64,000 nt of DNA from a bacterium (GTDB lineage: Bacteria; Bacillota_I; Bacilli_A; Izemoplasmatales; UBA1188), in NCBI GenBank assembly GCA_017541975.1, contig JAFXYB010000002.1, positions 335 to 64,334 of the forward strand, given 5' to 3'. Positions within the stretch are counted from its first letter, which is position 1, and each line of letters starts with the position of its first letter. Below the pieces are notes generated by a model. That model made no database searches. It was not told the origin of the DNA and saw nothing but the letters and a program-made list of their open reading frames with translations. Shown here piece after piece: positions 8,207 through 50,479 of the stretch. The translations under genes and the position numbers were made by a program.

Positions 8207-9373
8207 ATGGCAACAAAATATCTAGTAACTAATGCTCCATATCTTAGAAGTTCGGATCATGGCAGATCAACCCATACTGTAATGAGAGATCTACTTATTG
8301 GTCTTTCCCCAGTTATTTTATTCTCTATCTTCAAGAATGTGATAATGGTATTCATAAAAGGTGGTTACACATCAGTTTTACAAGCCATTTATCCTCTTAT
8401 CACACTCATTGTTGGTCCACTTACTTCAGCACTATTAGAAATGCTTTGTCTCTTTATTATGAAGAGAAAAGAAATCTCTAAATTTAGCGATTTATTAGAA
8501 GAAGTTAAAAATGGTTTTGGTTTCTTCCCAGGCTTATTTATTGTATTAATTTCACCTGTATATATCAATATGTGGGTGCTAATAGTATCCGTTGCAGTAG
8601 GTGAAGTTGTCGGCAAGATGCTCTTTGGTGGTTTTGGGCAAAACATCTTTAACCCAGCAATCATAGGAAGAGCATTTATGGCCTTCAGTTTCTCTAATCA
8701 AATTGGTGTATCATGCTTTGACCCAGCATTAAATTCATATCTTAACGCTTATGAAGCAACTGCAGTTGATGCAATTGCTGGTGCTACACCTCTTATTAGA
8801 TATTCTGGATTAACTGATATTAGCTATGTAAATGCAGTTGAACCATTTGGAAATCTTCTTGATTTCTTCCTAGGAACCATTCCAGGTTGTCTTGGAGAAA
8901 CAAGTTTCCTTGCTTGTTTAATTGGCTGCATCTATTTATCTGTTAGAAAGGTAATAGATTACAAAGTCCCATTAATCTATGTATCTACAGTATTCCTTAA
9001 TACATTAATCGCTGGTCTCTTTATGGGACAGGGAATATGGTATCCAGTATTCCAAGTTCTATCAGGCGGTCTCATGTTTGGTGCCGTATATATGGCTACT
9101 GAACCTGTAACCTCTCCTAAGACAAATCTAGGTAGAGCAATGAACGCAATGATGCTTGGTGTATTAACCGTATTATTCAGACTTGTCGGAAACAACCCAG
9201 AAGGTGTTGCAACCGCAATCGTCACAATGAATATCTTCGGTCTATTAATCAATAGATACGTTGTAAGAGTAAGAGTAGATGGTAAATTAGATAAGAATGA
9301 AGTTCCAGGTTTAGTTATATTCCTCGCAATCTTCACACTTATCTTTGTCTACAACATCATTATGATAGTCTAG
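8207..9373 (+). CDS. rnfD: Rnf complex subunit D
   Basis: Polytopic NqrB/RnfD-like membrane protein with the FMN-attachment-like motif DAIAGATPL. Confidence 0.9.
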   Translation: MATKYLVTNAPYLRSSDHGRSTHTVMRDLLIGLSPVILFSIFKNVIMVFIKGGYTSVLQAIYPLITLIVGPLTSALLEMLCLFIMKRKEISKFSDLLEEVKNGFGFFPGLFIVLISPVYINMWVLIVSVAVGEVVGKMLFGGFGQNIFNPAIIGRAFMAFSFSNQIGVSCFDPALNSYLNAYEATAVDAIAGATPLIRYSGLTDISYVNAVEPFGNLLDFFLGTIPGCLGETSFLACLIGCIYLSVRKVIDYKVPLIYVSTVFLNTLIAGLFMGQGIWYPVFQVLSGGLMFGAVYMATEPVTSPKTNLGRAMNAMMLGVLTVLFRLVGNNPEGVATAIVTMNIFGLLINRYVVRVRVDGKLDKNEVPGLVIFLAIFTLIFVYNIIMIV

Positions 9374-9384
9374 GAGGTAAAGAT

Positions 9385-9903
9385 ATGAAGAATAACTTAA
9401 TTACCGGCTTAGTATTATCAGTTTTCGCTCTAATATGTGGACTTATGCTATCGGTTGTAAATATGTTTACTGCACCGATAATAGAAGAGCGCACAGAAGA
9501 AAAAATCAATAATTCAATCATGGAAGTATGTGAAATCTACCGCGAAAACAAAGACACATATACAATTGATAAAGAATCAATTACCCATGATGAGGTAGAC
9601 TCTGTTTATCTAATAAAAAATGAAAATGGAGAAAAGGTTGAGGTTATATATATCATAAGTGCTAAAGGATATGCTTCAACTATTCAAATGATGGTTTCAG
9701 TCACCAAAGATCATAAAATTGAAAAATCAGTTGTAATTTCATCAGCTGAAACTAAAGGAAATATTAAAACTCATGATTTCAATATGGAAGGCAAAGACTC
9801 TCTAGAAGATTTTGATAAACTCGCAGGGTCAACCATTTCATCTAAAGCAGTAAGAAAGTGTTTTTATACGGCTTTAGATCTATCATATGAGGATCTTAAA
9901 TAG
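9385..9903 (+). CDS. rnfG: Rnf complex subunit G (FMN-binding)
   Basis: N-terminal TM anchor and a C-terminal FMN-attachment-like LAGSTISSKAV. Operon position. Confidence 0.85.
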   Translation: MKNNLITGLVLSVFALICGLMLSVVNMFTAPIIEERTEEKINNSIMEVCEIYRENKDTYTIDKESITHDEVDSVYLIKNENGEKVEVIYIISAKGYASTIQMMVSVTKDHKIEKSVVISSAETKGNIKTHDFNMEGKDSLEDFDKLAGSTISSKAVRKCFYTALDLSYEDLK

Positions 9904-9910
9904 GAGGTTA

Positions 9911-10591
9911 ATGATGAATAAGAAAGAAAACTTCCTTAAAGGATTTATCAAAGAAAACCCATTATTTGTACTGCTTCTTGGTACATGTCCTGCCCTTGCA
10001 ATTACTACATCCCTTGAAAATGCTCTTGGAATGGGTGTTGCATTCATATTCGTACTCGTAATGAGTAATACTATTATTTCTCTAATCAATTCATTCAAAA
10101 AACTAAAAGAATTAATTCAACCAGTTAGAATTGCAGTTTATATTGTAATAATCGCAAGCCTTGTAACAATCGTAGAAATGCTTATGCAAGCATATCTTCC
10201 AGATTTATATAATTCACTCGGTGTATTCATATCTTTAATTACCGTTAATTGTATAGTTCTTGGAAGAGCCGAAGCATATGCTTCATCAAATACCGTAGGT
10301 GATTCTGTAATAGATGGTATATCAATGGGCCTTGGTTATACACTTGCCTTAATTATCATATCTATAGTGAGAGAATTACTCGGTAACGGTACAATTACTA
10401 TTTGGGGTGATTTACAGCTCAACCTACAAGGTGTATTCGATTTTCTACATATTACAACCATTTCATTCTTTACATCTAGTGCTGGTGCATTTATGGTTTT
10501 AGGTATCGTCCTTGCGATAATGCAAGCAATAAAAAACGGTAAAGAAGAAAAAGCAAAAGAAGCTGAAAAAGCGAAGAAGGAGGTTAAATAA
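9911..10591 (+). CDS. rnfE: Rnf complex subunit E
   Basis: ATG at 9911 follows AGGAGG. LLGTCPALAITTS motif of the NqrD/RnfE family. Lys/Glu-rich C-terminal tail. Confidence 0.9.
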   Translation: MMNKKENFLKGFIKENPLFVLLLGTCPALAITTSLENALGMGVAFIFVLVMSNTIISLINSFKKLKELIQPVRIAVYIVIIASLVTIVEMLMQAYLPDLYNSLGVFISLITVNCIVLGRAEAYASSNTVGDSVIDGISMGLGYTLALIIISIVRELLGNGTITIWGDLQLNLQGVFDFLHITTISFFTSSAGAFMVLGIVLAIMQAIKNGKEEKAKEAEKAKKEVK

Positions 10592-10593
10592 TT

Positions 10594-11286
10594 ATGTCAT
10601 TTAGTCAAATAATCTTCATCATTTTCTCTTCAATGCTTCTTGAAAACGTTATTCTATCTCAATTCCTTGGAATTTGTTCATTCCTCGGAGTTTCTAAGAG
10701 TAGAAAGAGCGCAGTTGGTATGGGCTTATCAGTTGTTGCAGTAATCGTTATCGCCACAACTGTCACATGGCTAATATATAATTATGTATTAGTATTATTT
10801 GATTTAGTATATCTAAAGACCATTGTGTTTATATTAGTAATCGCATCACTAGTACAAATTATTGAAATAATCATTAAGAAGTTCGTTCCTACCCTCTATA
10901 AATCTCTTGGTATTTATTTACCACTTATTACGACAAACTGTGCCGTTCTTGGCGTTGCCATTAAAGCTGCGCAAAATGGTTTAACATTCTTCCATATGCT
11001 TCTTTATGCACTTGGATCTGGACTTGGTTTCTTATTAATAATGTTTATCTTCAGTTTCTTAAGAGAAGAATTAGATAAGAGAAAAATACCTAAAGCAATG
11101 AGCGGTATTCCAATTGCCCTTGTGGTTGCATCTATTCTCGCGATTATCTTCTCAAGATATGTAGGTATCGTAAAAGAAAGCGATAATAACGAAGAAAAAG
11201 AACTTCCACGCACAACTAATGTAATTATTATGCATAATGCTCCTAGTGAAGACTATTTAAATAATATTATGAGGAGGATGAAATAA
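10594..11286 (+). CDS. rnfA: Rnf complex subunit A (with ~40-aa C-terminal extension)
   Basis: ENVILSQFLGICSFLGVS and PLITTNCAVLGVA motifs of the NqrE/RnfA family. Confidence 0.9.
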   Translation: MSFSQIIFIIFSSMLLENVILSQFLGICSFLGVSKSRKSAVGMGLSVVAVIVIATTVTWLIYNYVLVLFDLVYLKTIVFILVIASLVQIIEIIIKKFVPTLYKSLGIYLPLITTNCAVLGVAIKAAQNGLTFFHMLLYALGSGLGFLLIMFIFSFLREELDKRKIPKAMSGIPIALVVASILAIIFSRYVGIVKESDNNEEKELPRTTNVIIMHNAPSEDYLNNIMRRMK

Positions 11287-11567
11287 TGCCAATTCTAATC
11301 GCAGTATTAGTTATGCTTGTTTTGGGTTTTGTACTAGGGTTTATAATTGCACTAGTATCAACTAAATTCCATGTAGAAGAAGATACAAGACTCACAACTA
11401 TTGCATCTCTCCTTCCTGGTGCTAACTGTGGTGCATGTGGAAATCCTGGTTGCCAAGCCTACGCACAAAAAATCTTTGATAAAGAATCAGATGGTAATGA
11501 TTGCACCGTTATAAAAGGCGAAGCAAAAGAAAAACTACTTGAATATATCAAAGAGAATATAAATTAA
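11286..11567 (+). CDS. rnfB: Rnf complex subunit B, minimal 93-aa form
   Basis: N-terminal TM helix, then LPGANCGACGNPGCQAYA...C, the N-terminal Fe-S domain of RnfB. No ferredoxin-like 4Fe-4S domains follow. Confidence 0.8.
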   Translation: MPILIAVLVMLVLGFVLGFIIALVSTKFHVEEDTRLTTIASLLPGANCGACGNPGCQAYAQKIFDKESDGNDCTVIKGEAKEKLLEYIKENIN

Positions 11568-11602
11568 CTTAAAAGATTTATCTTTTGCCTATTTATTTTT
11601 GT

Positions 11603-11631
11603 TTGACAAAAAAAGATATTTGTCTTACAAT
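11603..11631 (+). promoter_or_regulatory. Sigma-A type promoter for tRNA-Lys
   Basis: TTGACA (11603-11608), 17-nt spacer, TACAAT (11626-11631), about 20 nt before the tRNA 5' end. Confidence 0.7.
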
Positions 11632-11652
11632 AATCTAGACAAAAGATAATAT

Positions 11653-11728
11653 GGACCTTTAGCTCAGTTGGTAGAGCAACTGACTCTTAATCAGTGGGTC
11701 CACGGTTCGAGTCCGTGAAGGTCCACCA
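11653..11728 (+). tRNA. tRNA-Lys (anticodon CUU), CCA encoded
   Basis: 76 nt. Acceptor GGACCTT/AAGGTCC, D-arm AGCTCAGTTGGTAGAGC, anticodon stem ACTGA/TCAGT with loop CTCTTAA (CTT), T-arm CACGG-TTCGAGT-CCGTG, 3' ACCA. Confidence 0.95.
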
Positions 11729-11739
11729 CTTTGTCAATT

Positions 11740-11770
11740 ATCACTAGTCTTATGACTGGTGATTTTTTTA
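11740..11770 (+). terminator. Intrinsic terminator after tRNA-Lys
   Basis: ATCACTAGTC / GACTGGTGAT stem (one G-U pair), TTAT loop, followed by TTTTTTT. Confidence 0.8.
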
Positions 11771-11781
11771 TTTAAATTAAG

Positions 11782-11863
11782 TGCCAAAACGGCATATAAA
11801 CAAAAATCAAGTATGCCAAATTGGCATATTCTTATTGAATTAATGTGCCAATTATGTTATTAT
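11782..11863 (+). promoter_or_regulatory. Promoter with palindromic operators upstream of the HTH-MNT/HepT pair
   Basis: TGCCAAAACGGCA (11782-11794), the perfect palindrome ATGCCAAATTGGCAT (11813-11827), and a half site TGCCAATT (11846-11853) inside the spacer of TTGAAT (11835-11840) - 17 nt - TGtTATTAT (11855-11863). Confidence 0.6.
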
Positions 11864-11881
11864 ATTAGCGGAGATGATATT

Positions 11882-12361
11882 ATGAATATATTAGATATTA
11901 GAAATCAGTACAATTTATCGCAAAAAGAAGCAGCATCAATTATTAATATGCCACTAAGAACATTCATTCGTTATGAAAAAGATAACAGTTATGGCAACGA
12001 AATGAAAAGGCAGTCAATAATTAGAACACTTATTGAAAAAAATGAAATTACTGAAACGAAAGGCCTACTAACTATTGACCAAATTAAAGAATCATTAACG
12101 AAATTATTTGATGAAAAATACAAAGATCAAATTGAATTTTGCTATTTATTTGGAAGTTATGCGAAAGGATACGCTAAAGAATCTAGTGATATTGACTTAT
12201 GCATTGATACTTCATTAACGGGATTAAAATTTACTGGGTTAAGTGAATCAATAAGAGAAGCATTACATAAAAACATTGATTTAATTAGATTCTCAAATTT
12301 AGACAATAATATTGAACTAATTAGCGAAATAATGAAAGATGGTATTAAGATTTATGGATAA
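11882..12361 (+). CDS. HTH (XRE-like) + minimal nucleotidyltransferase (MNT) antitoxin
   Basis: ATG at 11882 follows GGAGA. N-terminal LSQKEAASIINMPLRTFIRYE helix-turn-helix, and nucleotidyltransferase motif FGSYAKGYAKESSDIDLCID. The longer track ORF (11759) overlaps the tRNA terminator. Confidence 0.8.
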   Translation: MNILDIRNQYNLSQKEAASIINMPLRTFIRYEKDNSYGNEMKRQSIIRTLIEKNEITETKGLLTIDQIKESLTKLFDEKYKDQIEFCYLFGSYAKGYAKESSDIDLCIDTSLTGLKFTGLSESIREALHKNIDLIRFSNLDNNIELISEIMKDGIKIYG

Positions 12362-12698
12362 TAACAAGGATGATAAATATTATGCAAAAAAAGCAATTGA
12401 AAATATTGCTGCCATAGAAAAATATATCTCAACCATTAGCTACGATCAATTTGTATTAGACGATGAACTTATAGATGCGGTTATGTTTAGGTTTATTCAA
12501 CTTGTTGAAAATATCAAAAACATATCTACAGAATTCAAAGAACAAAACAACGGCATCCCATGGGGAGACATTATTGGTTTTCGAAATGGTATAGTTCATG
12601 ATTACGGCCATACTGATTATAAAATAGTATATGAAACCGCTGTTAATGATTTAAAAGATTTAAGAATCGCTTTTGAAAATTATTATAATTTATGTTAA
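12339..12698 (+). CDS. HepT-like (DUF86/HEPN) toxin
   Basis: HEPN R-x4-H motif in FRNGIVHDYG. Overlaps the MNT gene. The alternative start ATG at 12354 overlaps the MNT stop. Confidence 0.8.
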   Translation: MVLRFMDNNKDDKYYAKKAIENIAAIEKYISTISYDQFVLDDELIDAVMFRFIQLVENIKNISTEFKEQNNGIPWGDIIGFRNGIVHDYGHTDYKIVYETAVNDLKDLRIAFENYYNLC

Positions 12699-12717
12699 AT
12701 TTATCAAAAAAACTAAT

Positions 12718-12740
12718 GACTTTGAAAATCAAAGTCTTTT
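12718..12740 (+). terminator. Intrinsic terminator after hepT
   Basis: GACTTTGA-aaa-TCAAAGTC followed by TTTT. Confidence 0.7.
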
Positions 12741-12751
12741 AAAATAATATG

Positions 12752-12778
12752 TGCTATAATAGTTAGCAGATGCTAACT
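12752..12778 (+). promoter_or_regulatory. Extended -10 promoter plus 18-bp perfect palindrome (putative metalloregulator operator)
   Basis: TGcTATAAT (12752-12760) is immediately followed by AGTTAGCA-GA-TGCTAACT (12761-12778), upstream of the HMA/ZIP gene pair. Confidence 0.5.
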
Positions 12779-12806
12779 GATGCTAGTGTCTTTCTTGGAG
12801 GTATTT

Positions 12807-13055
12807 ATGTATAAGTATATTCTAAAAGTATATGGAATGAGATGTGGAATGTGCGAAAGTCATATTAATGATGTTATTAGAAGGAATTTTAATGTAAAAA
12901 GAGTAAATTCATCACACATCAAAAATACTACAACTATATTCACAGAAGAAGAGTTATGTGAAGATGCAATTAGAAAAGTTATAGATGCAACCGGATATGA
13001 GTTAACCACAATAGAAAAGGCGGATGCCGTTAAAAAAGGCTTGTTTTGGAGGTAA
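12807..13055 (+). CDS. Heavy-metal-associated (HMA) domain protein
   Basis: ATG at 12807 follows GGAGG. GMRCGMCESH = GMxCxxC metal-binding motif. About 82 aa ferredoxin-like HMA size. Confidence 0.8.
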   Translation: MYKYILKVYGMRCGMCESHINDVIRRNFNVKRVNSSHIKNTTTIFTEEELCEDAIRKVIDATGYELTTIEKADAVKKGLFWR

Positions 13056-13057
13056 GT

Positions 13058-13843
13058 ATGGATAAATTTTACCCACTGATAGGTATATTATTGATTTTCG
13101 TATGTACCACAATAGGTGCCCTATTTGTATTTTTTATTCGTGATAAAAACATCTCTCCAAAATTAAATAAAATATTTATTGGTTTTGCAGCCGGAGTAAT
13201 GCTTTCTGCTTCGTTCTTTTCGCTCATTAAGCCAGCATTAGAATCAAATGTTGCATATATGCCAACTTGGATTATTGTTGCAATATCTATTGTTCTAGGT
13301 TCTTTGTTTTTGTTTGGAATTGATAAAATTGTTCCTCACCTTCATATTCAAGAAAATAAAGAAGAAGGTCTAATTAATAACCATATGTCTAAAACAAGCA
13401 AAATGTTCTTAGCGGTCACAATCCATAATATTCCAGAAGGACTTTCTGTAGGTATCGCTTTTGGTGTTGCACTTTCTATTCCTGATAACCACGCATTATT
13501 ACTAGGTGCATTGCTTCTTGCAATTGGTATAGGTATACAAAACATTCCAGAAGGTGCGGTTGTTTCACTACCTATAAAGGCAGAAACCGGATCTTCATCA
13601 AAAGCCTTTTTATTTGGTATGCTTTCAGGAGTGGTAGAACCAATTGCTGGTGTAATTGGTCTATTACTTGCTCTAAAAATTCAAGGCATAATGCCTTGGG
13701 CACTTGCTTTTGCAGCTGGTTGTATGATTTATGTTGTTGTTGAAGAGATGATTCCAGAAATGAAAGATGATGATCATGATCACTTTGGTGTTTGGTCATT
13801 TATCATTGGATTTGTAGTAATGCTTATTCTAGATTGTCTCTAA
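13058..13843 (+). CDS. ZIP family divalent metal transporter (ZupT/GufA-like)
   Basis: HNIPEGLSVG and QNIPEGAVVS signature helices, 8 predicted TM segments, His/Asp-rich DDDHDH segment. SD GGAGG lies inside the end of the HMA gene. Confidence 0.88.
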   Translation: MDKFYPLIGILLIFVCTTIGALFVFFIRDKNISPKLNKIFIGFAAGVMLSASFFSLIKPALESNVAYMPTWIIVAISIVLGSLFLFGIDKIVPHLHIQENKEEGLINNHMSKTSKMFLAVTIHNIPEGLSVGIAFGVALSIPDNHALLLGALLLAIGIGIQNIPEGAVVSLPIKAETGSSSKAFLFGMLSGVVEPIAGVIGLLLALKIQGIMPWALAFAAGCMIYVVVEEMIPEMKDDDHDHFGVWSFIIGFVVMLILDCL

Positions 13844-13909
13844 AAACATCACAAAAAATACATAAATTAAGAATATGTGTAGTTACACTACACTAAAAAA
13901 AGAAAACAA

Positions 13910-13938
13910 TTGACAAATTTGTTGAATAATGATATATT
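13910..13938 (+). promoter_or_regulatory. Sigma-A type promoter of the riboswitch/giant-protein operon
   Basis: TTGACA (13910-13915), 17-nt spacer containing TG, TATATT (13933-13938). Confidence 0.7.
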
Positions 13939-13964
13939 AACGTGGAAGCGTGAGAATATCATAA

Positions 13965-14045
13965 AATGCTTCATAAGGCAAAACTAGCGTAAGCTAGCGA
14001 CGCAAAGCTATAGGGTCTAATAAAGACAGCCAGTTGCAGTTTATC
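13965..14045 (+). promoter_or_regulatory. Candidate c-di-GMP-I (GEMM-I) riboswitch aptamer
   Basis: AAGGCAAAAC-CTAGC-GTAA-GCTAG-C-GACGCAAAGC-TATAGGGTC...GACAGCCAGTTGC. This matches the GGCAAAC / GNRA-capped helix / GACGCAAAGC signature of class I c-di-GMP aptamers (compare Vc2). Confidence 0.7.
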
Positions 14046-14080
14046 ACTCTTTTGTGATAGAAAAAGGCTGTCTTTTTATT
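14022..14080 (+). terminator. Riboswitch expression-platform terminator
   Basis: AAAGACAGCC (14022-14031) pairs with GGCTGTCTTT (14066-14075). Inner hairpin TATCAC/GTGATA, followed by TTTATTTT. The 5' arm overlaps the aptamer 3' half. Confidence 0.7.
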
Positions 14081-14107
14081 TTGAATCTAAGGAAAGGAGG
14101 AGTAGTT

Positions 14108-15049
14108 ATGAAATTATCTAGAAAAAAACTTATTTCAGCAATAGTAAGTTTATCTTTTGCTAGTCTACTTGCTTTCCTTACAATTTTCTTCTTCACTGAT
14201 TACTCTTTAGGTTGGTATTCAGAAAATAGATATGTACAATCAAGAGGAATTGGTATTACAGTCGAATCACAAAGTGCCGTTACAACTCTCTCATGTTATG
14301 CATTTAGATATGATGGTATGTTTGGGGCTGTTTGTTTAGACGTAAGTAATAACCCAGAAATTGCCATGTCTGAATATGACGTTATCTTCACTGATAAAAA
14401 CGTTAATACACCATTATTCTTTAGAGTTGTTGCACAAGGTATTCCAAACACTGAAGGTGGATATATTAGTGTTACAATTCCATGCACAACACCAAATTAT
14501 TCTCAATCATCAAACACAATAACTGCTGGTGATGGTCTTAATGCACAAGGCGTATTATCAAATGTTATCACATGTAAACTTGGTTGTGGATTAATTGAGA
14601 ATGCTAGAAGGGTTACAGACTCATATTTCCCTGTAGAAACTTCAGAAACTAGAGTGGAAGATAATGTCTCTATATTTACTGGTGTTCGTGATCTTATGAA
14701 ACCAGCTAATGCATCAGCAAACAAAGTTGTATCAGGAAAATACATCAATAATATTCAAAAAGATAATGATGGTAATATCACATCAGCCAGCAAAACAACC
14801 ACAGCCATTACTCTTACTCTAAATTATGAAGACTATGCCGATTATCTATGTGGCGTTGAATTAGATGAAGATGGAATAGTAACCGATTATGATTATGAAG
14901 CAGAAGAAAAAGATTGCTTAGTATTCTACATCGAAATAGATTACGACGACGATCTAGTAAACATGTTTAGATCTCATACAAGCGAAGATACTCTTGCAGA
15001 ATTCAGAAATGATATAGGAACAATATCTATAAAGGAAGTTTGGGGATAG
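14108..15049 (+). CDS. Hypothetical exported/membrane-anchored protein (313 aa), partner of the giant protein
   Basis: ATG at 14108 follows AAAGGAGGAG. N-terminal KK + hydrophobic segment + YSLGWYSE motif. No recognisable catalytic motif. Acidic C-terminus. Confidence 0.75.
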   Translation: MKLSRKKLISAIVSLSFASLLAFLTIFFFTDYSLGWYSENRYVQSRGIGITVESQSAVTTLSCYAFRYDGMFGAVCLDVSNNPEIAMSEYDVIFTDKNVNTPLFFRVVAQGIPNTEGGYISVTIPCTTPNYSQSSNTITAGDGLNAQGVLSNVITCKLGCGLIENARRVTDSYFPVETSETRVEDNVSIFTGVRDLMKPANASANKVVSGKYINNIQKDNDGNITSASKTTTAITLTLNYEDYADYLCGVELDEDGIVTDYDYEAEEKDCLVFYIEIDYDDDLVNMFRSHTSEDTLAEFRNDIGTISIKEVWG

Positions 15050-15051
15050 GA

Positions 15052-18000
15052 ATGAAAAAACTAAGAATTGAAACTTTCAAGTTGTTGCTTGTAATTGCTC
15101 TTATATTTGGGACAATCACCACATCTGTTTATGGTTGGTTCTCTAGTAAAGCAAACACAATCTCAACAAAAGTAACCGGAAGCATCGTGTTTGAATATTT
15201 CCATTGTGGCGACGGATCAGAAGAAAATCCGTTTGTTATAACACGCCCTATTCACTATTATCACATGGTTGAATTCTTCCAAAGGATTACAATTCTAGAT
15301 ATTGGAAATAATGAAAAGGCAAATTTTGGTAAAGACTATCTTTATTTCCAAATTGGATGTCCTCTTGCACAGCTCGGTGACCCAACAAATACAAATGGTC
15401 CTGTAGATGCAAATGACTGGTATGTATTTGATTATTCTAATACTGGTGGTGTAAACGAAAAAACCAACGCTCAGGGCGAAATAGTTGCCCCAGGAACAAA
15501 TGCTCTCGCATCTAAAACGCTCAATATGGCGTATTATTCAGGTGAAAGAGCCCTAATGCCAACAGGTTCATCTGAGGTTCCTTTCTTAGGATCAATCGAT
15601 GGCCATAAGATGACAATAGATAATCTACACATTGTATCTAGTTCAATAGTCAATGTCGTAGATGAACACGGAACAATACATTCAAATGTTCAAAGACATA
15701 CCGCAGATATGGGTGTGTTTGGTTGTGTAGCACAAGGCCTTGATTTAAATGAAGATGGTACAGTTGCGAATGTTGTTGAAAACGACGTAGTTACACTTCG
15801 TGAACAATCTTCAATCAAAAACTTATATATTACCAATGCAACAATAGACTTAGATGGTACTGCAACATCTACAGAAATAGTAGGCGATCTTCCAACTCTT
15901 CCAAATGGAGATCCAACTCACTCTAACGATTACCACCTAGTAAATGAAGATGGTGAAGTAGTAGAAGAAAACGGTACAGAAATTGCCTATGTTGGTTATG
16001 TTGCAGGTCACGTATTCTCAACAGACGATATCACAGACGTGTACGTAAATAATTGTAGAATAGTTGGTGGTACTGCATCCCTTACCGGCTATGGTTATTT
16101 TGGCGTTATCATCGACCCAACTACAGGTGACACGGTATCATCATTAGGTTCAGCAATTGCGAACATCTATACATCTGGTGATGGTAGCGGATTCGGTGGT
16201 AGTATTGGTATGACTGACCTCTTTACTAGAATTGGTAATGTGAGAGATGCATCATCAAACATTAGAAATATTACAGCTGAAACAGTAATTATTGATGAGG
16301 TTGCTGGTACAACAACCAGGATTGCAACTGCATATGCAAACCAAGATGCATATAACCCAAGTCGTTCAAGCAACAACAGTGAGTTTATACAATATCACTA
16401 TAGCCCTGAAAGCGGTCTTTATTATATCTTCTTTAGAGGAACCAACACTCAAGGCTATAACTATTTATGGGGCGAAAATACTCGTCTTCAAACCAAAACA
16501 GTAACCACCATAACATATGAAAAAGATCTAGATACTGGATCTTATAAAATGGTTGATGGTTATATTATTTATGAAGGATCACAAAACTATCTAGGAACAA
16601 GTGCTACAACTACAACTAGTGCAACCCTTGCAGGTGTAAGTCAAGCAAATGCAAGAATATTGTCTTTTGATGATAGTAATCACTTATATTTCATTGCACC
16701 AGTAAATTTCACTCAAAATTATGATTATCCATATAACGATAATGAAAATGGTGCAATCGATACTATTTTCTATCTAAATGCAGCAAATAATTACCTTGGA
16801 GTAACAGCAGCAAATAACGCTTCAACAACCTGGGCATTTGATGAAGATAATAGACTTTATACAACAAATAATCAAACAAGATACTATCTTGACTACAACA
16901 ATGATAATTGGTATCTAACACCAGTTACATCTTTCTCAATCTTTAAGGATGGCGAAGGCAATTATTTAAAAATTACTGGAACATCTCTTGATAATACAAC
17001 AGTAGAAGCTGATGCATCAAAATTAGAACTTTCAAATCCTGAAGCATCAACTACAATTACAACAATAATAAATGGTACAAGATACTACCTTAGAAGTAAT
17101 GCTGGCACACTCGAGTTAAACACAACTGCAAACAATCATCAATGGTCATATGATTCTACCAAAGGTGCATATTATATGACTTATGGGTCAACAAAATACT
17201 ATATCGCATGTGATGATGATGTATGGAAAATGAGACCAGAGGGATATAACTATCTGATATCTGATACTGGTAATTATTTAAATGCAACATCGACAACTGC
17301 ATTTACTAATGTTACCGATTCAACAGCAGCATCTTATTGGAATTTAGATCCTAATGCAGCCACTACAACAATTTCAACTATCATATCCGGTACAGTAACA
17401 TATCTCGGTGTAAATAATGGAAACTTAGTGCTTGGTACTGGATATAACACCTCTTGGACAAAAGAAGGTGATGCTTACTATACAACTATTGATGGAACTA
17501 AGTTCTATTTGGGTTTCGATGGCACATGGAAGATAGATTATTCAGGCTATAAACTTGGTGATGGAAACGGTAATTATATCAATGCATCATCAGCAACTGC
17601 AATTAATAATCAAACAAATGCTTCAAACGCTTCTACATGGTTATATGATCCAGATAGTGCAACTACTACAATTTATACATATGTAAATGGAACAAAGACA
17701 TATCTTGGAATAAATAATGGTGCTCTAGCACTAAATGCAAGTTATAGTACAACATCTTGGACTAAGGACAACGATGGATACTATATCACAAACACAGACG
17801 GCATTAAACAATATATTAGATATAACAATGGTTGGATTGTTCAAATAGATGGATATAAGATTAGTAATGGAGCTACTAACTATTTAACAGCAACAAGTGC
17901 AACTGCAACTGGCAATACAACAGAAGCAAATGCTGCTATATGGGTTCTTGATCCAGACAGTGCAACTACTACAATCTTTACTTATGTAAATGGTACCAAG

Positions 18001-21000
18001 ACATATCTCGGTGTAAATAATGGCGCTCTAGCACTAAATGCAAGCTATAGTTCAGTCGCTTGGACTAAAGAAAGTGCCAATAGTTATTACGTACTTGTAG
18101 CTTCAGAAAAAGCATACATTACATATGATAATGGATGGAAAATAGCATACGAAGGCTATAGAATTAAAAATACTGCCAACAACAACTGGCTAAGTGCATC
18201 AAGCCAAACTGCAATTACAAATCAAACTACTCAAGCAAATGGAAGCATATGGATTTTAGATCCAGACGCAGCCACTACAACAATCGCAACAATCTATAAT
18301 GGCACTAAGACATATCTTGGAGCTAATGGATATGCTCTCGCATTAAACACATCATATTCAGGAACACTTTGGACAAAAGAAGGCAACACCTATTACATTG
18401 AGTCTAATGAAGGTGTAAAACTATACCTAATTTATGATAATGGATGGAAGCTTGGATATGATGGTTATACAATAAAAGATAATAGCGGCAACTATTATCT
18501 ATCCGCTAATGGAACTACAATACAAAACCAAACAACTCAAGCAAATGGCACATCATGGATTATAGATAGAGATGAGAATACAACAAAAATATTCTATATC
18601 TATAACAACTCTACTCCGTATTATCTTGGAATTGATAATAATGAAAACCTTGCAGTTGGAACAGCTTATAGTTCAACAATTTGGACAAAAGACGGAAATA
18701 GTTATTATACAACTTACAATGGTATTAATTACTATTTCACCTATTTAGCTAACGGCTGGAGAGCTCTTCCTAAAGAGTACGTTAGAATTATGATGAATGG
18801 TTATTATATGTATCTTTATAGCGGTACTGCAGTTAGAAATAATGCTAATCCAACAGCCACAGCAGCTAATTTCTATAGAGATTCTCAAAATAGATATTAT
18901 GCTTTCTATAATAACAACAAGACATATATTAGAAACAATAATAATACAGTTCAAGCAAGTACAACTATAGGACAAGCAGCAGAAATTCTAAGAGAAGGGA
19001 ATATACTTTATGTTCAAAGCGGCAATAATAAGCTATATATTAATCAAACTTCAACGTCTACTTATAGTAGTACTGCGTGGAGTTTTTCGGCAGCTAATGT
19101 TGCCCGCTATGCAATAGGAGATGGTTCTGGTCACTATCTAAATGTTACAGGAACTAATGCTAATTCTTATGAAACTGTAAATAATGCTCAAAATGCAACT
19201 CACTTTGTATTCTCAAGTACAACATCGGGTACTATTTCAACTACAGTAGATGGAACAACTTACTATCTCAGAAACAATAATGGTACTTTAGAAGTGAGCA
19301 CAACTAGTACTACATGGGATATTACAACAAATGGTATAAGTAATGATGGATATAATCTAAGATACAATAATGGAAACTGGGAATTAGTAACAGTATATTA
19401 TGTTTTAAGATCTGGTACAAGCTATATGGGATATTCTGGAACCGATGTAACTGTGGTTTCATCAAAGAATGATAGTAATATTCTTTTGTTTAAAAACATT
19501 CCTACTACAACAGGAACCGATTATACTCTTGAAGTTAAAGCTGGTAATAATGAATATAACCTATATTGCCCAAACAACACTAACAATTCCGCTGTTTCTC
19601 TTAGTACGAACGCAAGAAACTGGAGAACAGATGCAAACGGAAGATTGTTTTATAGATATAGCAACACCAGAAGTTACTACTTACGTCTTACAGGTGGGGA
19701 TTGGCAAGTAAACAGAACTCAAGCAAATGGTAGCACAATAACATTCGAACTATATGATGACTCTATTCAAACTAACATAACTAGAACGGAGTTCTTATAC
19801 GGAAACGAAGTAGCAACTGACAACACAAACACTTATGCGCAAACATTTGCAGCTGCTTCAGTTACAAAGAATTTAACACCACAACAATATACAGTTACAA
19901 AGAATTTCAACGCTGCATATATTGACCCATATTTCGCTCTTGCAAATACATCACACGATGCAGCAAGAACAATAACTATCAGTGAGTCTTTGATGGTTTA
20001 TGGTATTACAGATACTGTTCCACTAAACATTAATAGAATCACACAAAGTCAAAAGGCAATCAAGATAGGTGCACAAGAATCCGGCCTTCCAACCGGTTTC
20101 ACCACATATATGCCTATTCGTATAACTGGTAGTGAAGATTCTGATTATGATTCAAATAGTCCTTTCAAAGCATCTTTAAAGAACACAGGATATATTATTG
20201 GCGGTGGTAATTTCTACGTTCAAGGAAACAGTGTTGGTGATATTCGTGTATCTAGATATGCTAAGGACAATATTTCTTCTTATAGAACAACTGATTACAC
20301 CACTCTTTATACTATTGATGGAAATGGCATTAGAAGACTAAATTCAAACGATTTAAATAAATATATGTCATTCAATGATTCACAAGATGCTGATGGAAAC
20401 ACCATTTCTGGTGCGAAGACACAATTTGATGCGATGATTGGATCTTATGCTGATGGTCTTCACTTCATGAACGCCGAGATATCTACTGAGCGTCTTATCA
20501 CCGTTCCTCAAGCAACCATCCTTAATAGAACATATTATAACTACCAGTTCCCTGAAGACTGTATTGACTTTAAAGTATTAAAACGTGGTGCAATTAGTTT
20601 CTTTGCGGGTGAATACTTCACTGGAAATGATGCATTCTTCTCTCTTCATCAAATATTTAGAGATGAAGATCAAAACATCACAGATATAAAAGAGATTCAA
20701 TACGTATATAAAGTAACTGGTGCTACACTAGGAACTGCGGATTATATTTATCTTTATAAAGATGGTCTTTATGGAATAATTAACCAAGAGACAGGTAATT
20801 TTGAAGTCACTAATAAGATTTCTTTAACTCAAGAAAATAGCGCATACTTAAATGCATATTATGAAATTGCATTCAATACCGATTGGATCACAAACCCAAC
20901 AGGTGTTAGTGATTCTAATAAACGTGTTTATTATTTCGAAATTCCATGTAATAAGGGTGAATATGCCCTTGGATCTGTAACAGGAAAAACTGGTGCATAC

Positions 21001-21501
21001 CTTCTTTACCTCGATATCGCCGCAAATGGTGGTGATGAAGTCGCTGCAATCGTAAGTGGTGAAGGTAATGACGTTTCTACAACATTTAAGGTTGACTTTA
21101 GAGCTCCAGGAGAAACATCTAATTTCGCAATCTTACAGTTAGAAGTTAAGTGTCCAACTGAAGAAAATGCATCTTCTAGAGAACTCGACTCAAGACTATT
21201 TAGTGTTAGAGTTGTCTTTGACTCAAGTGAAACGGGAGCAAATAATACGTATCCGAGTGGTATATACAATATATACGTCACAAACAAAGTACCAGATACA
21301 ACGGTAAAGATTAAGGTCTTCTTAGTCGATGATGATAATGATGTATCTACAGCATTCCCATATGCATTTAGAGTGATATACACTAATACAGAATTTGAAA
21401 ATGTAACTATCACAAACATTGCTGATCTCGACTTCTATCAATCAGTTGGTGCATTTGAAATACCATTTGAAGGAGCCGGTGTAGAAGCATCCTACGACTA
21501 A
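15052..21501 (+). CDS. Giant (2149 aa) repeat-containing surface/secreted protein
   Basis: ATG lies 2 nt after the upstream stop. N-terminal KK + hydrophobic segment + VYGWFSS. GDGSEENPFVI and PFLGSIDGHKMTIDNLHI motifs, as at the start of beta-helix/GLUG-type passenger domains. About ten ~101-aa repeats. No C-terminal LPXTG. Confidence 0.85.
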   Translation: MKKLRIETFKLLLVIALIFGTITTSVYGWFSSKANTISTKVTGSIVFEYFHCGDGSEENPFVITRPIHYYHMVEFFQRITILDIGNNEKANFGKDYLYFQIGCPLAQLGDPTNTNGPVDANDWYVFDYSNTGGVNEKTNAQGEIVAPGTNALASKTLNMAYYSGERALMPTGSSEVPFLGSIDGHKMTIDNLHIVSSSIVNVVDEHGTIHSNVQRHTADMGVFGCVAQGLDLNEDGTVANVVENDVVTLREQSSIKNLYITNATIDLDGTATSTEIVGDLPTLPNGDPTHSNDYHLVNEDGEVVEENGTEIAYVGYVAGHVFSTDDITDVYVNNCRIVGGTASLTGYGYFGVIIDPTTGDTVSSLGSAIANIYTSGDGSGFGGSIGMTDLFTRIGNVRDASSNIRNITAETVIIDEVAGTTTRIATAYANQDAYNPSRSSNNSEFIQYHYSPESGLYYIFFRGTNTQGYNYLWGENTRLQTKTVTTITYEKDLDTGSYKMVDGYIIYEGSQNYLGTSATTTTSATLAGVSQANARILSFDDSNHLYFIAPVNFTQNYDYPYNDNENGAIDTIFYLNAANNYLGVTAANNASTTWAFDEDNRLYTTNNQTRYYLDYNNDNWYLTPVTSFSIFKDGEGNYLKITGTSLDNTTVEADASKLELSNPEASTTITTIINGTRYYLRSNAGTLELNTTANNHQWSYDSTKGAYYMTYGSTKYYIACDDDVWKMRPEGYNYLISDTGNYLNATSTTAFTNVTDSTAASYWNLDPNAATTTISTIISGTVTYLGVNNGNLVLGTGYNTSWTKEGDAYYTTIDGTKFYLGFDGTWKIDYSGYKLGDGNGNYINASSATAINNQTNASNASTWLYDPDSATTTIYTYVNGTKTYLGINNGALALNASYSTTSWTKDNDGYYITNTDGIKQYIRYNNGWIVQIDGYKISNGATNYLTATSATATGNTTEANAAIWVLDPDSATTTIFTYVNGTKTYLGVNNGALALNASYSSVAWTKESANSYYVLVASEKAYITYDNGWKIAYEGYRIKNTANNNWLSASSQTAITNQTTQANGSIWILDPDAATTTIATIYNGTKTYLGANGYALALNTSYSGTLWTKEGNTYYIESNEGVKLYLIYDNGWKLGYDGYTIKDNSGNYYLSANGTTIQNQTTQANGTSWIIDRDENTTKIFYIYNNSTPYYLGIDNNENLAVGTAYSSTIWTKDGNSYYTTYNGINYYFTYLANGWRALPKEYVRIMMNGYYMYLYSGTAVRNNANPTATAANFYRDSQNRYYAFYNNNKTYIRNNNNTVQASTTIGQAAEILREGNILYVQSGNNKLYINQTSTSTYSSTAWSFSAANVARYAIGDGSGHYLNVTGTNANSYETVNNAQNATHFVFSSTTSGTISTTVDGTTYYLRNNNGTLEVSTTSTTWDITTNGISNDGYNLRYNNGNWELVTVYYVLRSGTSYMGYSGTDVTVVSSKNDSNILLFKNIPTTTGTDYTLEVKAGNNEYNLYCPNNTNNSAVSLSTNARNWRTDANGRLFYRYSNTRSYYLRLTGGDWQVNRTQANGSTITFELYDDSIQTNITRTEFLYGNEVATDNTNTYAQTFAAASVTKNLTPQQYTVTKNFNAAYIDPYFALANTSHDAARTITISESLMVYGITDTVPLNINRITQSQKAIKIGAQESGLPTGFTTYMPIRITGSEDSDYDSNSPFKASLKNTGYIIGGGNFYVQGNSVGDIRVSRYAKDNISSYRTTDYTTLYTIDGNGIRRLNSNDLNKYMSFNDSQDADGNTISGAKTQFDAMIGSYADGLHFMNAEISTERLITVPQATILNRTYYNYQFPEDCIDFKVLKRGAISFFAGEYFTGNDAFFSLHQIFRDEDQNITDIKEIQYVYKVTGATLGTADYIYLYKDGLYGIINQETGNFEVTNKISLTQENSAYLNAYYEIAFNTDWITNPTGVSDSNKRVYYFEIPCNKGEYALGSVTGKTGAYLLYLDIAANGGDEVAAIVSGEGNDVSTTFKVDFRAPGETSNFAILQLEVKCPTEENASSRELDSRLFSVRVVFDSSETGANNTYPSGIYNIYVTNKVPDTTVKIKVFLVDDDNDVSTAFPYAFRVIYTNTEFENVTITNIADLDFYQSVGAFEIPFEGAGVEASYD
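16543..19719 (+). repeat. Tandem in-frame ~303-nt (~101-aa) repeat array inside the giant gene
   Basis: Unit starts at 17242, 17545, 17851, 18154 and 18463 (periods 303-309 nt). An exact 20-mer GCTCTAGCACTAAATGCAAG occurs at 17722 and 18025. More diverged units flank on both sides. Confidence 0.85.
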
Positions 21502-21511
21502 TAAAATACTT

Positions 21512-21544
21512 AAAAGCGCTTTCTTTTGAAGGCGCTTTTCTTTA
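21512..21544 (+). terminator. Intrinsic terminator after the giant gene
   Basis: AAAAGCGC / GCGCTTTT stem with a 12-nt loop, followed by a T-rich run. Confidence 0.6.
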
Positions 21545-22221: not shown

Positions 22222-22406
22222 ATTTTCATTTTTTGACACAATTTTTTTCATTTTTAAAAATCTAATTATTATAAATAATAATTACATAAAAAAATATTTT
22301 ATGAAAACGTGTTCATTAAATAAACTCTTTTCAATATGATATAATATTTACAAGTAAATTGAGAGTATTATAATTTACTTAAGTTTAGAGAAGGAGAGAG
22401 ATAGCG

Positions 22407-48718: not shown

Positions 48719-48834
48719 ACGAGTGATAAATTATGATATGACATTTTCAAGACATAGACGAATTATTGAAATAAAGAAGTATATATAGTATAATGTTATC
48801 AATAATAATACATTGCAAATGGAGGGCTAAAACG

Positions 48835-50478
48835 ATGCCAAATAATTCTTTTTCTGATTATGTAGATATTCCTATTGGCAATAATTGTATTTTTGCCTTG
48901 CTTAATAGATGCAATAGCACATCAATATCGTTAGATTTGATGCCTATAGGCGTCGGTTTGAACTATATAAATCAATATTATTACGTTGATTTAGGATGTG
49001 CAATTAACCTAAGTACAGCCCTCGCATCGTATAATATTCCAAGATCATCCATAAAGACAATAAGCTTTTATTTTAAAGGAACAAATAATGTAGGAGATTT
49101 AGAATCGATTGGTTGGAACGATGAGGACGATTCTTTACCAGCAACTTACTTAGGTGATTTTGACTATAATATACCAATTGATTCATCCTTTTTTAATCCC
49201 ACTACTGGTTTATATATCTTCAAAATAAGGGCAGCATCTACAAATATTTATACAACCTTAGATTTGATGAGTTCTTATATAAGAGTTGAATATTTATTAT
49301 TAGACGATATCTACATATATTCTGCTCCTAATACAACAAGATATTTAAATGATAGTGAGTTAAACTTAGATGGTTTAGTTTTGATGGCTCGTTTTTTAGA
49401 CGAAACAGAGAGGCAAATATATGATTTTAGTTCAAATCCAAATAGTGATGAAAAATTAAATCCTGATATAACACAAATTACATTTACATATAAAGTTCGC
49501 AACACTACAAAAACAGCAGTTCAAAATATAGTAGTCGAACAATGGAAAAGAGAGTGTATAGATATATCATATGATAATAATACATTACAAAAAGCAGATA
49601 TTTATATCCCAAAGCAAGTTAATCCGAACGACACATTTCCTGTATTGCTAACAATACATGGGGGAGGTTTTTATTCAGGTCAAAAAGAAGATTTTAATTA
49701 CATTAGAAAAACGATTGTTTCGCAAGGGCTCATTCATGTCAATATGAATTATAGATTGATGCCAGATCCTCACGCTCAATCATATGTTCTAGATGCATCA
49801 AACGCAAATTATTTAAATATGTTAGAGGATATTCGATTATTAATATTGCATTTATATAACAACTCTAATAGATATAATATTGATGTTTCTAAAATCGCTT
49901 TAATGGGATATAGTGCTGGTGGAAACTTAGCATTTAATTACACATTAAGATCTCTATTAAATTCCGGAAACGATAAAATAACGAGTTCGATTCCAGTTGA
50001 ATTAATAATAACAGAAGGTGCTCCATTTTATGAAGAGCTAAGTCTTAGTAATGATGGTTTAACATTTGATAATGGCAGTTATATTCAAGAATCATCAGCT
50101 CAAAATGGTATAAAAGCGGAAATGGAAGCTTTGATTCATTGGGGACTAAGTTCGTATTTCGATATATCAAAAATTAAACCTTTGACTTTTTTAACAATAG
50201 GTCAAACTCTCCCATTAAATCTATTCGTGCAAGGAATTGGATATAAACCTAATGGCGATTATTCAAATGGAAATGAAAAAACAGGAGATACATTAGTTAG
50301 CAATGAAGGAATATTATTAATGAGCAATAATGCAGCATATAATGTTAATCCAAATTATTTATTTCTTAATTGCAAGCACGATGAATATCAGTTATTTTTT
50401 GAATCAAATTATGTGAATTATAAAACAACACTCATTTCTTTATTAAACACTTTTAAGACTCCAAACGGAGGAAATTAA
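48835..50478 (+). CDS. Alpha/beta-hydrolase (family IV esterase/lipase-like) with ~270-aa N-terminal extension
   Basis: ATG follows GGAGGG. HGGGFYSG oxyanion motif and GYSAGGNLA nucleophile elbow. The N-terminal part contains an Ig-like segment (NTTRYLNDSELNLDGLVLMARF). No signal peptide. Confidence 0.75.
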   Translation: MPNNSFSDYVDIPIGNNCIFALLNRCNSTSISLDLMPIGVGLNYINQYYYVDLGCAINLSTALASYNIPRSSIKTISFYFKGTNNVGDLESIGWNDEDDSLPATYLGDFDYNIPIDSSFFNPTTGLYIFKIRAASTNIYTTLDLMSSYIRVEYLLLDDIYIYSAPNTTRYLNDSELNLDGLVLMARFLDETERQIYDFSSNPNSDEKLNPDITQITFTYKVRNTTKTAVQNIVVEQWKRECIDISYDNNTLQKADIYIPKQVNPNDTFPVLLTIHGGGFYSGQKEDFNYIRKTIVSQGLIHVNMNYRLMPDPHAQSYVLDASNANYLNMLEDIRLLILHLYNNSNRYNIDVSKIALMGYSAGGNLAFNYTLRSLLNSGNDKITSSIPVELIITEGAPFYEELSLSNDGLTFDNGSYIQESSAQNGIKAEMEALIHWGLSSYFDISKIKPLTFLTIGQTLPLNLFVQGIGYKPNGDYSNGNEKTGDTLVSNEGILLMSNNAAYNVNPNYLFLNCKHDEYQLFFESNYVNYKTTLISLLNTFKTPNGGN

Positions 50479-50479
50479 A

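Follow-up and report, generated by a model that had tools for sequence, protein, structure and literature searches.

Two adjacent genes at positions 14108 to 21501 of a 64-kb stretch of an Izemoplasmatales genome (contig JAFXYB010000002.1; the whole stretch analysed is called the window below) encode a protein of 313 amino acids (aa) and a giant of 2149 aa, and they raise the question of what such a pair is for and when it is made. The answer that we favour, and consider probable, is that they form a bicistronic surface operon induced by cyclic di-GMP (c-di-GMP), in which a promoter, a c-di-GMP-I riboswitch, gene 1, gene 2 and a terminator follow one another and whose two Sec-exported products would have a role in attachment or in a matrix. 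We infer such a c-di-GMP-induced, Sec-exported surface module from an aptamer that competes with a terminator, two genes that always occur together, an export motif common to both proteins and, in relatives, genes for SipW-type signal peptidases and phosphodiesterases. The riboswitch, its overlap with a terminator, the conservation of the pair and of the motif, and the SipW-type genes of relatives are direct results of the computation. The elements of the operon are the following.

Positions 13910 to 13938, + strand: strong sigma-70-type promoter (TTGACA, 17 nucleotides (nt), TG-extended TATATT; 11 of 12 matches).
Positions 13967 to 14041, + strand: c-di-GMP-I riboswitch aptamer (RF01051), full-length over model positions 1-87, 60.6 bits, E = 2e-9.
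Positions 14025 to 14082, + strand: expression platform, an intrinsic terminator with its stem at 14025-14072 (dG -18.2 kcal/mol), followed by the U-run TTTTTATTTT.
Positions 14093 to 14102, + strand: ribosome-binding site of gene 1 (AAAGGAGGAG), read from the sequence, 6 nt 5' of the ATG at 14108.
Positions 14108 to 15049, + strand: gene 1, of family fam1, 313 aa (ATG 14108, TAG 15047-15049), with a signal or anchor at aa 1-35, an invariant W36 and a beta-rich ectodomain.
Positions 15052 to 21501, + strand: gene 2, of family fam2, a 2149-aa giant (ATG 15052, stop 21499-21501), with a signal or anchor at aa 1-28 and then W29.
Positions 21512 to 21539, + strand: operon terminator, strong, with a 12-bp stem, 5 G-C pairs and a T-rich tail, 10 nt past the gene 2 stop.

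The riboswitch, which the initial annotation had missed, is the key point of this locus and the strongest functional clue. The gathering score of RF01051 is 35 bits, and inspection of the consensus alignment showed that both the GGCAAA and the ACGCAAAGC segments of the ligand pocket were present in the aptamer. The promoter, which is the best-scoring promoter-like site between positions 12500 and 23000, lies 29 nt upstream of the aptamer, and the leader runs from promoter to aptamer, terminator, ribosome-binding site and gene 1. The 5' arm of the terminator consists of the last 17 nt of the aptamer, namely the 3' strands of helices P2 and P1, and the minimum-free-energy fold of the whole leader contained the terminator and not P2, which indicates that aptamer and terminator are mutually exclusive. 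The pbuE riboswitch is an ON switch of the same layout, and since the Bc2 ON switch shares this mutually exclusive arrangement, c-di-GMP is predicted to induce the operon. Without ligand, the 3' half of the aptamer would pair with downstream sequence, and the terminator so formed would halt transcription ahead of gene 1; with c-di-GMP bound, the aptamer would keep that strand, no terminator would form, and both genes would be transcribed. In 24 of 25 related leaders, a terminator hairpin followed by a U-run takes its 5' arm from the conserved 3' segment of the aptamer (AGCCAGUUGC), to an extent of 12 nt or more, and since the 3' arm sequences differ among them, it is the design that is conserved and not merely the sequence.

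Furthermore, the riboswitch and the gene pair recur together. When related loci were fetched and redundant contigs counted once, a c-di-GMP-I-class aptamer, scoring 41-75 bits, headed 21 of the 23 non-redundant fam1-fam2 modules, across protein identities to gene 1 from ~99% down to ~25%. The two modules without a heading aptamer were L031 and L021; in L021, sipW and a GGDEF-EAL gene precede the pair. Every fam1 homologue examined has fam2 immediately after it if the contig extends that far, and with the exception of one module the gap between the two measures -4 to +36 nt. In the window, the list of open reading frames (ORFs) and the translations place two bases (GA) between the stop of gene 1 and the ATG of gene 2, across which translation of gene 2 is probably coupled to that of gene 1. 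Coordinates, translations, the 2-nt gap and the retention of the pair in relatives thus agree with the two tightly coupled genes, expected to co-occur elsewhere, of the initial annotation. A conserved third gene 3' of the pair was looked for in the Bacilli-type loci, and none was found.

Two of the related loci, L001 and L018, carry a tandem duplication of the module, each copy with its own aptamer. In L001 (2200-19354), from a yak-rumen metagenome-assembled genome (MAG; GCA_017960565.1), the tandem riboswitch and pair are followed by a group II intron with a reverse transcriptase, and the right flank (acetyltransferase, uracil permease) is syntenic with that of the window. In L018, the two tandem riboswitch-fam1-fam2 modules occupy 9069-17402, with a third c-di-GMP-I aptamer 5 kb on (22266-22340). 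The two fam1 paralogues of L018 are 92% identical over the first 49 aa and completely divergent after that point, which suggests recombination at the signal-peptide boundary. A further observation on the aptamers is that some score best on the variant model c-di-GMP-I-GGC (RF03167), namely those at L007 392-486, L024 2281-2373 and L026 2172-2246.

The two proteins share their N-terminal design. Both begin with a basic stretch and ~21 uncharged residues, followed by [ST]-Φ-[AG]-W-[FYL]. The pattern [AGSCT]-W-[FYLIMVW] was found within the first 80 residues in 154 of 159 members of the gene-1 superfamily and 145 of 146 members of the gene-2 superfamily; the number of uncharged residues ahead of the W has a median of 21 in both families, and the W-anchored consensus of both is [ST](-3)-Φ(-2)-[AG](-1)-W-[FYL]-[SA]. 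Among window ORFs of at least 100 aa, only gene 1 and gene 2 carry the motif. Because a whole-profile hhalign comparison of fam1 with fam2 did not pick up the N-terminal similarity, returning one spurious 18-column match, a W-anchored column test was used. In this test the profile-profile column score, with positions -1 to +1 excluded, beat 5000 of 5000 column permutations (z = 3.8); the similarity beyond the W alone was not significant (z = 1.4). The unusual shared motif that had been pointed out from the sequence is therefore no product of chance and is kept in orthologues, although the family-wide consensus is broader than the core proposed at that time, Y-x(0,2)-G-W-[FY]-S-[ES].

The residues at -3 (S/T, also A/V) and -1 (A/G) are small and are kept across >270 sequences. 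Type I signal peptidase requires such small residues at these two positions, and the motif accordingly fits a putative cleavage site. In addition, it parallels position by position the TasA-type signal, T-[FWY]-A↓[AY]-F-[ST]-D, where the arrow marks the cut. Other means of attachment to the cell were not apparent. As had been stated before, gene 2 has neither a C-terminal LPXTG nor a lipobox: its C-terminus reads ...FEIPFEGAGVEASYD (...FEGAGVEASYD), without the LPXTG, hydrophobic segment and basic tail of a sortase-anchor signature, and the L-x-x-C of a lipobox is absent from both proteins, neither of which has a Cys in its first 50 residues (the first Cys of gene 1 is residue 63, that of gene 2 residue 52).

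Genes for peptidases of the type that acts on TasA-like signals were found in relatives. SipW-type genes lie within 10 kb of the pair in five of seven Clostridia-type loci (L019, L021, L029, L031 and L007, the last cut by the contig end). With rsw standing for a c-di-GMP-I riboswitch and TM for a membrane protein, these loci are arranged as follows.

L029: rsw-sipW(248 aa)-fam1-fam2.
L029, second unit: rsw-EAL-TM protein-fam0('SYAWFSMN', 311 aa)-sipW(324)-McrB-like AAA+(543)-charged 654-aa protein-sipW(210)-GGDEF/EAL.
L031: fam1-fam2-sipW(257)-sipW(307)-...-sipW(226)-GGDEF/EAL.
L019: EAL-TM protein-fam0; rsw-fam0-fam0-fam1-fam2(2393 aa)-LGT-like; a separate rsw before sipW(325).
L021: sipW(209)-GGDEF/EAL-fam1-fam2.
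L007 (Subdoligranulum sp.): rsw-fam1-fam2; rsw-EAL-TM protein-fam0-sipW, cut by the contig end.

The eight complete SipW-type ORFs scored 60-90 bits on TIGR02228, the model of archaeal/SipW-type signal peptidase I (cutoff 51.85 bits), and 52-98 bits on the SipW model NF046067, and all eight keep the S-M-x-P and (N)THR[IV] motifs. The partial sipW of L007 matched a hidden Markov model (HMM) of the eight other cluster peptidases at E = 2.5e-13. In L019, one riboswitch controls sipW alone. Clusters of this type also contain EAL or GGDEF-EAL genes, and in four of five loci counted as having them these genes are assigned to a c-di-GMP-I riboswitch: L007, L017 and L029, and L019, whose corresponding leader is off the contig; in the fifth, L021, no aptamer was detected. 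Such an arrangement indirectly supports c-di-GMP as the ligand and points to a feedback loop, which would be a negative one where c-di-GMP induces an EAL enzyme.

Several further features of these clusters were recorded. A second operon adjoins the pair in Clostridia-type genomes (L007 5244-8361; L017 442-3147; L019 1-2164; L029 8830-12906), in the order EAL phosphodiesterase, conserved membrane protein of 235-284 aa and fam0, then SipW in L007 and L029; fam0 is a protein of 283-372 aa with the sequence 'T-Y-A-W-F-S-M-N'. Up to three SipW-type paralogues occur per cluster in L029 (11932-17273) and L031 (6459-12339), two of them with long charged C-terminal tails, beside an McrB-like AAA+ gene (543 and 517 aa, respectively) and a TolA-like charged protein (654 and 489 aa), with a GGDEF-EAL gene downstream. 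In the Clostridiales MAG of L019, a short Lgt-like gene (prolipoprotein diacylglyceryl transferase family, PF01790, 47 bits) lies directly past the giant gene at 13214-13876, although the cluster proteins have no lipobox.

The proteins themselves fall outside described families. Searches with the whole proteins gave no match for gene 1 or gene 2 in Pfam, NCBIfam, PHROGs or PDB sequences, and for these collections the absence of a known family is borne out; gene 2 cut into three segments gave nothing in Pfam, NCBIfam and PHROGs at E<=10, nor did PDB sequence searches with single sequences and with the family profiles A3, A4, A5 and A6. The gene-1 family, represented by alignments A1, A2 and A5, comprised 23 clusters by word-indexed search and 361 clusters by exhaustive profile search (50% identity, E<=1e-3), nearly all of 250-300 aa. 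A Pfam scan of 76 diverse fam1 members returned single sporadic matches and no recurrent domain, and a metagenome scan with A2 yielded 7 short loci. For fam2, relatives were 44 giant forms and 103 short-form clusters (at least ~150 clusters in all). Members of both families come from rumen and gut MAGs labelled Firmicutes, Bacilli, Erysipelotrichaceae, Clostridiales/Clostridia and Subdoligranulum.

Gene 1 was modelled with AlphaFold 2 (AF2) on 21 sequences, with a predicted local distance difference test score (pLDDT) of 79.7 and a predicted template modelling score (pTM) of 0.76. In the model, one helix at the N-terminus (aa 4-37) is joined by a disordered linker (aa 32-46) to a domain rich in beta structure. 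The best Foldseek match in the PDB had E = 0.03 and a TM score < 0.25, and TasA was outside the top 50. Membership of the TasA/camelysin (Peptidase_M73)/BsaA group was rejected, as there was no Pfam or NCBIfam match, no PDB sequence match and no TasA-like fold. The most conserved block of fam1, MSEYDxIFTDKNVNTPLFFR (gene 1 aa 87-106, window 14366-14425), is a low-confidence loop in the model (pLDDT < 50 at aa 89-100). That the invariant fam1 residues K157, N98, N100, D91 and D171 could permit isopeptide-type chemistry like that of BsaA is pure speculation.

Gene 2 is made up of conserved ends and a variable middle.

Positions 15052 to 16581, + strand: conserved N-terminal region, aa 1-~510, containing YFHCGDGSEENPFVITRPIHYYHMVEFFQR and several invariant His/Asp/Arg.
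Positions 16762 to 19713, + strand: variable middle, aa 571-1554, of ~10 tandem repeats of ~97 aa.
Positions 20095 to 21483, + strand: conserved C-terminal region, aa 1682-2144, matched by BLASTP to the L007, L005, L004 and L018 short forms.

In BLASTP comparisons with short-form homologues, the N-terminal region was covered over aa 1-394, 1-405 and 1-656. Its invariant columns in alignment A3 are H49, H66, H69, E72, R76, R192, D196, H240, H244, H257 and D302, nearly all of which can be read in the window protein. Six of the ~97-aa repeats are strong (aa 635-1238, nt 16954-18765; E 1e-36 to 1e-44 with an HMM iterated on gene 2 itself, alignment A4), and the weaker ones are degenerate copies flanking them. 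The repeat region is not present in the ~870-aa short forms, and for this reason it is taken as a lineage-variable stalk. An assignment of the repeats to ricin-type beta-trefoils was rejected, its sole basis being a threefold Y-L...W pattern with no Pfam or PDB support.

Gene 2 is over length for modelling, and its 875-aa short-form homologue P0068 was modelled instead, on 55 sequences. The AF2 model (pLDDT 83.5) spans the regions shared with gene 2, that is, the N-terminal ~400-650 aa and the C-terminal ~450 aa, and has beta-sandwich domains in its C-terminal part. Foldseek gave no significant match for P0068 in the PDB or BFVD; its faint neighbours were carbohydrate-binding modules (CBM51, CBM35) and discoidin-type jelly rolls (E of at least 9e-4, TM score < 0.35). 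The GDGSEENPFVI and PFLGSIDGHKMTIDNLHI motifs of gene 2 and the two N-termini are present as the initial annotation had quoted them, and its interpretation of the motifs as the start of a beta-helix/GLUG domain was not upheld: Pfam GLUG (PF07581) gave no match at E<=10 over aa 1-620, and P0068 had no beta-helix neighbour in the PDB. Both AF2 models show a beta-rich ectodomain behind a single N-terminal helix, and in both the ~20 residues past the W are disordered or of low confidence (pLDDT < 50 for residues 32-46 of gene 1 and 23-46 of the short form). Both protein families are new, and their folds are probably new as well.

The favoured explanation of a c-di-GMP-induced surface operon would combine these elements as follows. 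Both products would be exported through Sec by their common signal, consisting of a basic n-region, ~21 uncharged residues and [ST]-Φ-[AG]↓W-F, which would most likely be cut, or at least recognized, by a SipW/archaeal-type peptidase such as those encoded in the Clostridial clusters. The giant protein would be displayed on the cell surface with its conserved N-domain, a variable stalk of ~97-aa repeats and conserved C-terminal beta-sandwiches, and would act as an attachment or biofilm-matrix factor; a variable stalk with distal beta-sandwiches fits an adhesin or matrix factor by analogy. The 313-aa protein would be its obligate extracellular partner, whether as anchor, assembly factor or co-subunit. 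A high level of c-di-GMP generally goes with attachment and the production of matrix, and rumen and gut Firmicutes would most likely switch the pair on when settling and attaching.

Several results weigh against this explanation. The only structural neighbours are weakly CBM- or discoidin-like, and the invariant His/Asp/Arg of the fam2 N-domain may point to a metal or catalytic site, for which a role purely in adhesion would give no account. For the identity of the ligand, the variant model RF03167 also matched the window, at 13968-14042, with 52.6 bits, below its cutoff of 59. For the signal, the SipW-cognate model TIGR04088 (cutoff 19 bits) gave no match at E<=10 to either N-terminus or to relatives, in a search in which TasA, the positive control, scored 38-51 bits; TIGR04089 and TIGR04090 likewise gave none. 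No SipW-type gene was found in the 64-kb window by eye, by tblastn or with an HMM of 8 cluster SipW paralogues, nor within 10 kb of any Bacilli-type module, and processing in this organism may therefore be carried out by a general signal peptidase or be absent. The proposal of the initial annotation that both proteins are substrates of a SipW-like peptidase is thus favoured by the SipW genes of the five Clostridia-type clusters, the small -3 and -1 residues and the retention of the motif in orthologues, and disfavoured by the lack of a TIGR04088 match and of a SipW gene in the window or near Bacilli-type modules.

If processing is absent, the N-terminal segments may be permanent single-pass anchors with the Trp at the outer membrane interface, and the pair may form a membrane-tethered heteromer through its helices and juxtamembrane motif, with the C-terminal domains of the giant distal and no dedicated peptidase in this lineage. 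Such an arrangement is possible, if not what we expect. The median of 21 uncharged residues in both families is the length of a membrane span, the AF2 helix runs on through W36, no SipW gene lies in the window or near Bacilli-type modules, and the N-terminus is the sole visible anchor of a giant protein without LPXTG, lipobox or recognized cell-wall-binding domain. However, a plain anchor needs none of the small residues that are kept at -3 (S/T/A/V) and -1 (A/G) in >270 sequences, the Clostridial clusters themselves encode SipW-type peptidases and regulate them together with the pair, and TasA-type signals are known to have h-regions of similar length. The opposite case, in which cleavage exposes an N-terminus W-F-S-x-N...G-Φ-x-Φ that serves, like those of TasA and BsaA, as a donor strand, sharpens the fibre suggested in the initial annotation: gene 1 subunits would polymerize or form a base, to which the giant would be joined by its own N-terminal strand as the terminal adhesin. 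We think this unlikely, since gene 1 has no TasA, pilin or other fibre-subunit fold by Foldseek, the similarity of fam1 and fam2 past the W is not significant, and the window has a single small subunit gene. It would nevertheless account for the ~20 disordered residues past the W in both models, which are expected of an extension that folds in a neighbouring subunit, for the common start of the post-W segment in the two proteins, and for the low confidence of the most conserved fam1 block (M87-R106), as if it became ordered on assembly; the Clostridial clusters moreover add small 'AWF' proteins (fam0) and SipW, like sipW-bsaA-bsaB-bsaC (PMC11580942).

The many invariant His, Asp, Glu and Arg residues of the N-domain could instead belong to a secreted metal-dependent enzyme acting on an extracellular polymer such as a matrix or plant glycan, with the repeats and C-terminal beta-sandwiches as substrate-binding modules and gene 1 as an accessory factor. 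The weak fold neighbours, which are carbohydrate-binding modules and accessory domains of glycoside hydrolases, and the rumen and gut habitat agree with an enzyme; no enzyme family in Pfam or NCBIfam and no PDB sequence or fold was matched, however, and this explanation is quite improbable. Least probable by far, and rejected, is that the module is mobile, comes from a phage or encodes a toxin, so that the giant would be, for instance, akin to a tail fibre or a polymorphic toxin accompanied by its partner. The tandem duplications in L001 and L018, the group II intron beside one copy and the giant, repeat-rich protein would suit such an origin, but there was no PHROGs match and no significant BFVD fold match, the G+C content (33.5-35% versus 32.3%) is like that of the host, the C-terminus of gene 2 is conserved and not polymorphic, and the flanks consist of housekeeping and transport genes, the right one syntenic with L001.

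The surroundings of the operon are unrelated to it. It is preceded by genes for a HepT/MntA toxin-antitoxin pair, a small metal-binding protein and a ZIP transporter, and followed by those for a hexapeptide acetyltransferase and a uracil permease; the G+C content of gene 1 (33.5%) and gene 2 (35.2%) is close to that of the rest of the window (32.3%). The toxin-antitoxin pair, an MntA/HepT system of type VII, follows a tRNA-Lys(CTT), the whole occupying 11653-12698, and the N-terminus of its antitoxin carries an extra MqsA-like zinc-ribbon/helix-turn-helix part. At 40847-43300 on the + strand, an 817-aa ORF joins a complete GdpP-type cyclic di-AMP phosphodiesterase (PAS_GdpP, GGDEF_GdpP, DHH, DHHA1) in frame with both the N and C domains of ribosomal protein L9 (aa 667-812), with dnaB just downstream; either this is a real gdpP-rplI fusion or a stop codon was lost in the MAG. 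At 48793-52960, an esterase (BD-FAE/carboxylesterase) precedes a lipoprotein of 826 aa that contains linkers rich in Thr and six leucine-rich repeats of the BspA type; it is a further surface-adhesin candidate in this genome and has no riboswitch.

c-di-GMP riboswitches are among the few direct read-outs of the bacterial switch to sessile life, and the aptamer at 21 of 23 modules therefore marks two unannotated superfamilies, of ~360 and at least 150 clusters and mostly from rumen and gut MAGs, as members of the sessile programme. The module offers a testable handle on attachment and matrix formation in uncultured fibre-associated Firmicutes, comprising a ligand, a switch, two exported proteins and the dedicated peptidase of relatives, and it would extend the idea of a special signal with a private peptidase past TasA-like proteins. 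A more ambitious possibility, which we find rather doubtful, is that the pair is the minimal form of an unrecognized secretion-and-assembly system of anaerobic Firmicutes, in which processed subunits build a fibre capped by the giant protein. The full Clostridial system would then be a regulon under c-di-GMP riboswitches, with up to three dedicated SipW-type peptidases, the AWF-signal families fam0, fam1 and fam2, whose folds would be new, an McrB-like AAA+ protein and feedback phosphodiesterases. If true, this would be a third type of SipW-dependent extracellular fibre, with a fold unrelated to TasA and BsaA and with assembly by strand donation or covalent linkage.

In the literature, no earlier description was found of a c-di-GMP riboswitch linked to SipW/TasA systems or to these proteins, and the known systems resemble the module in part. 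In Gram-negative two-partner secretion, such as FhaC/FhaB, a small gene is tightly coupled to the gene of a giant repeat-rich exoprotein. The likeness is one of gene layout only: these Firmicutes have no outer membrane, neither gene of the pair has a POTRA/Omp85 or two-partner secretion domain, and gene 1 has a beta-sandwich-like ectodomain behind one helix and not a barrel.

The tapA-sipW-tasA operon of Bacillus subtilis and sipW-bsaA-bsaB-bsaC of Clostridium perfringens come closer, as SipW is a private peptidase for matrix proteins in both species (PMC7395162, PMC11580942). They share with the present loci exported proteins with a special signal, T/S-aromatic-A↓x-F-S/N, a SipW/archaeal-type peptidase in the cluster (here in Clostridial relatives, including the sipW-fam1-fam2 order of L029), small subunits with a larger accessory protein and a function in sessile life, which for our pair would be by analogy. 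However, fam1 and fam2 resemble TasA, BsaA and camelysin neither in sequence or HMM comparisons nor in fold; an invariant Trp occupies their +1 position, and they lack the Asp of F-[ST]-D. Furthermore, the large partner here has 870-2400 aa, control is by a c-di-GMP riboswitch in place of SinR or BsaRS, and in the lineage of the window the peptidase gene is unlinked.

The control region has its own counterparts. In Bacillus thuringiensis, the class I riboswitch Bc2 is a c-di-GMP ON switch for the adhesin Cap (PMC4933901), and Clostridioides difficile uses c-di-GMP riboswitches to induce adhesins and pili (PMC11477304). Bc2/cap (class I, ON) and the C. difficile targets CD2831, CD3246 and type IV pili (class II, ON) share with the window an aptamer in the 5' leader, a terminator-based platform, in the window predicted to be of the ON type, and a large protein that would in our case too be displayed on the surface. 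Their products belong to known families, being pilins or LPXTG/sortase-anchored collagen-binding or thioester proteins, whereas those of the window belong to uncharacterized families, would be N-terminally anchored or processed and are always paired. By analogy, the module would act like an ON riboswitch-adhesin of the Bc2/cap type combined with a matrix system of the SipW type, in which a special signal is served by a private peptidase.

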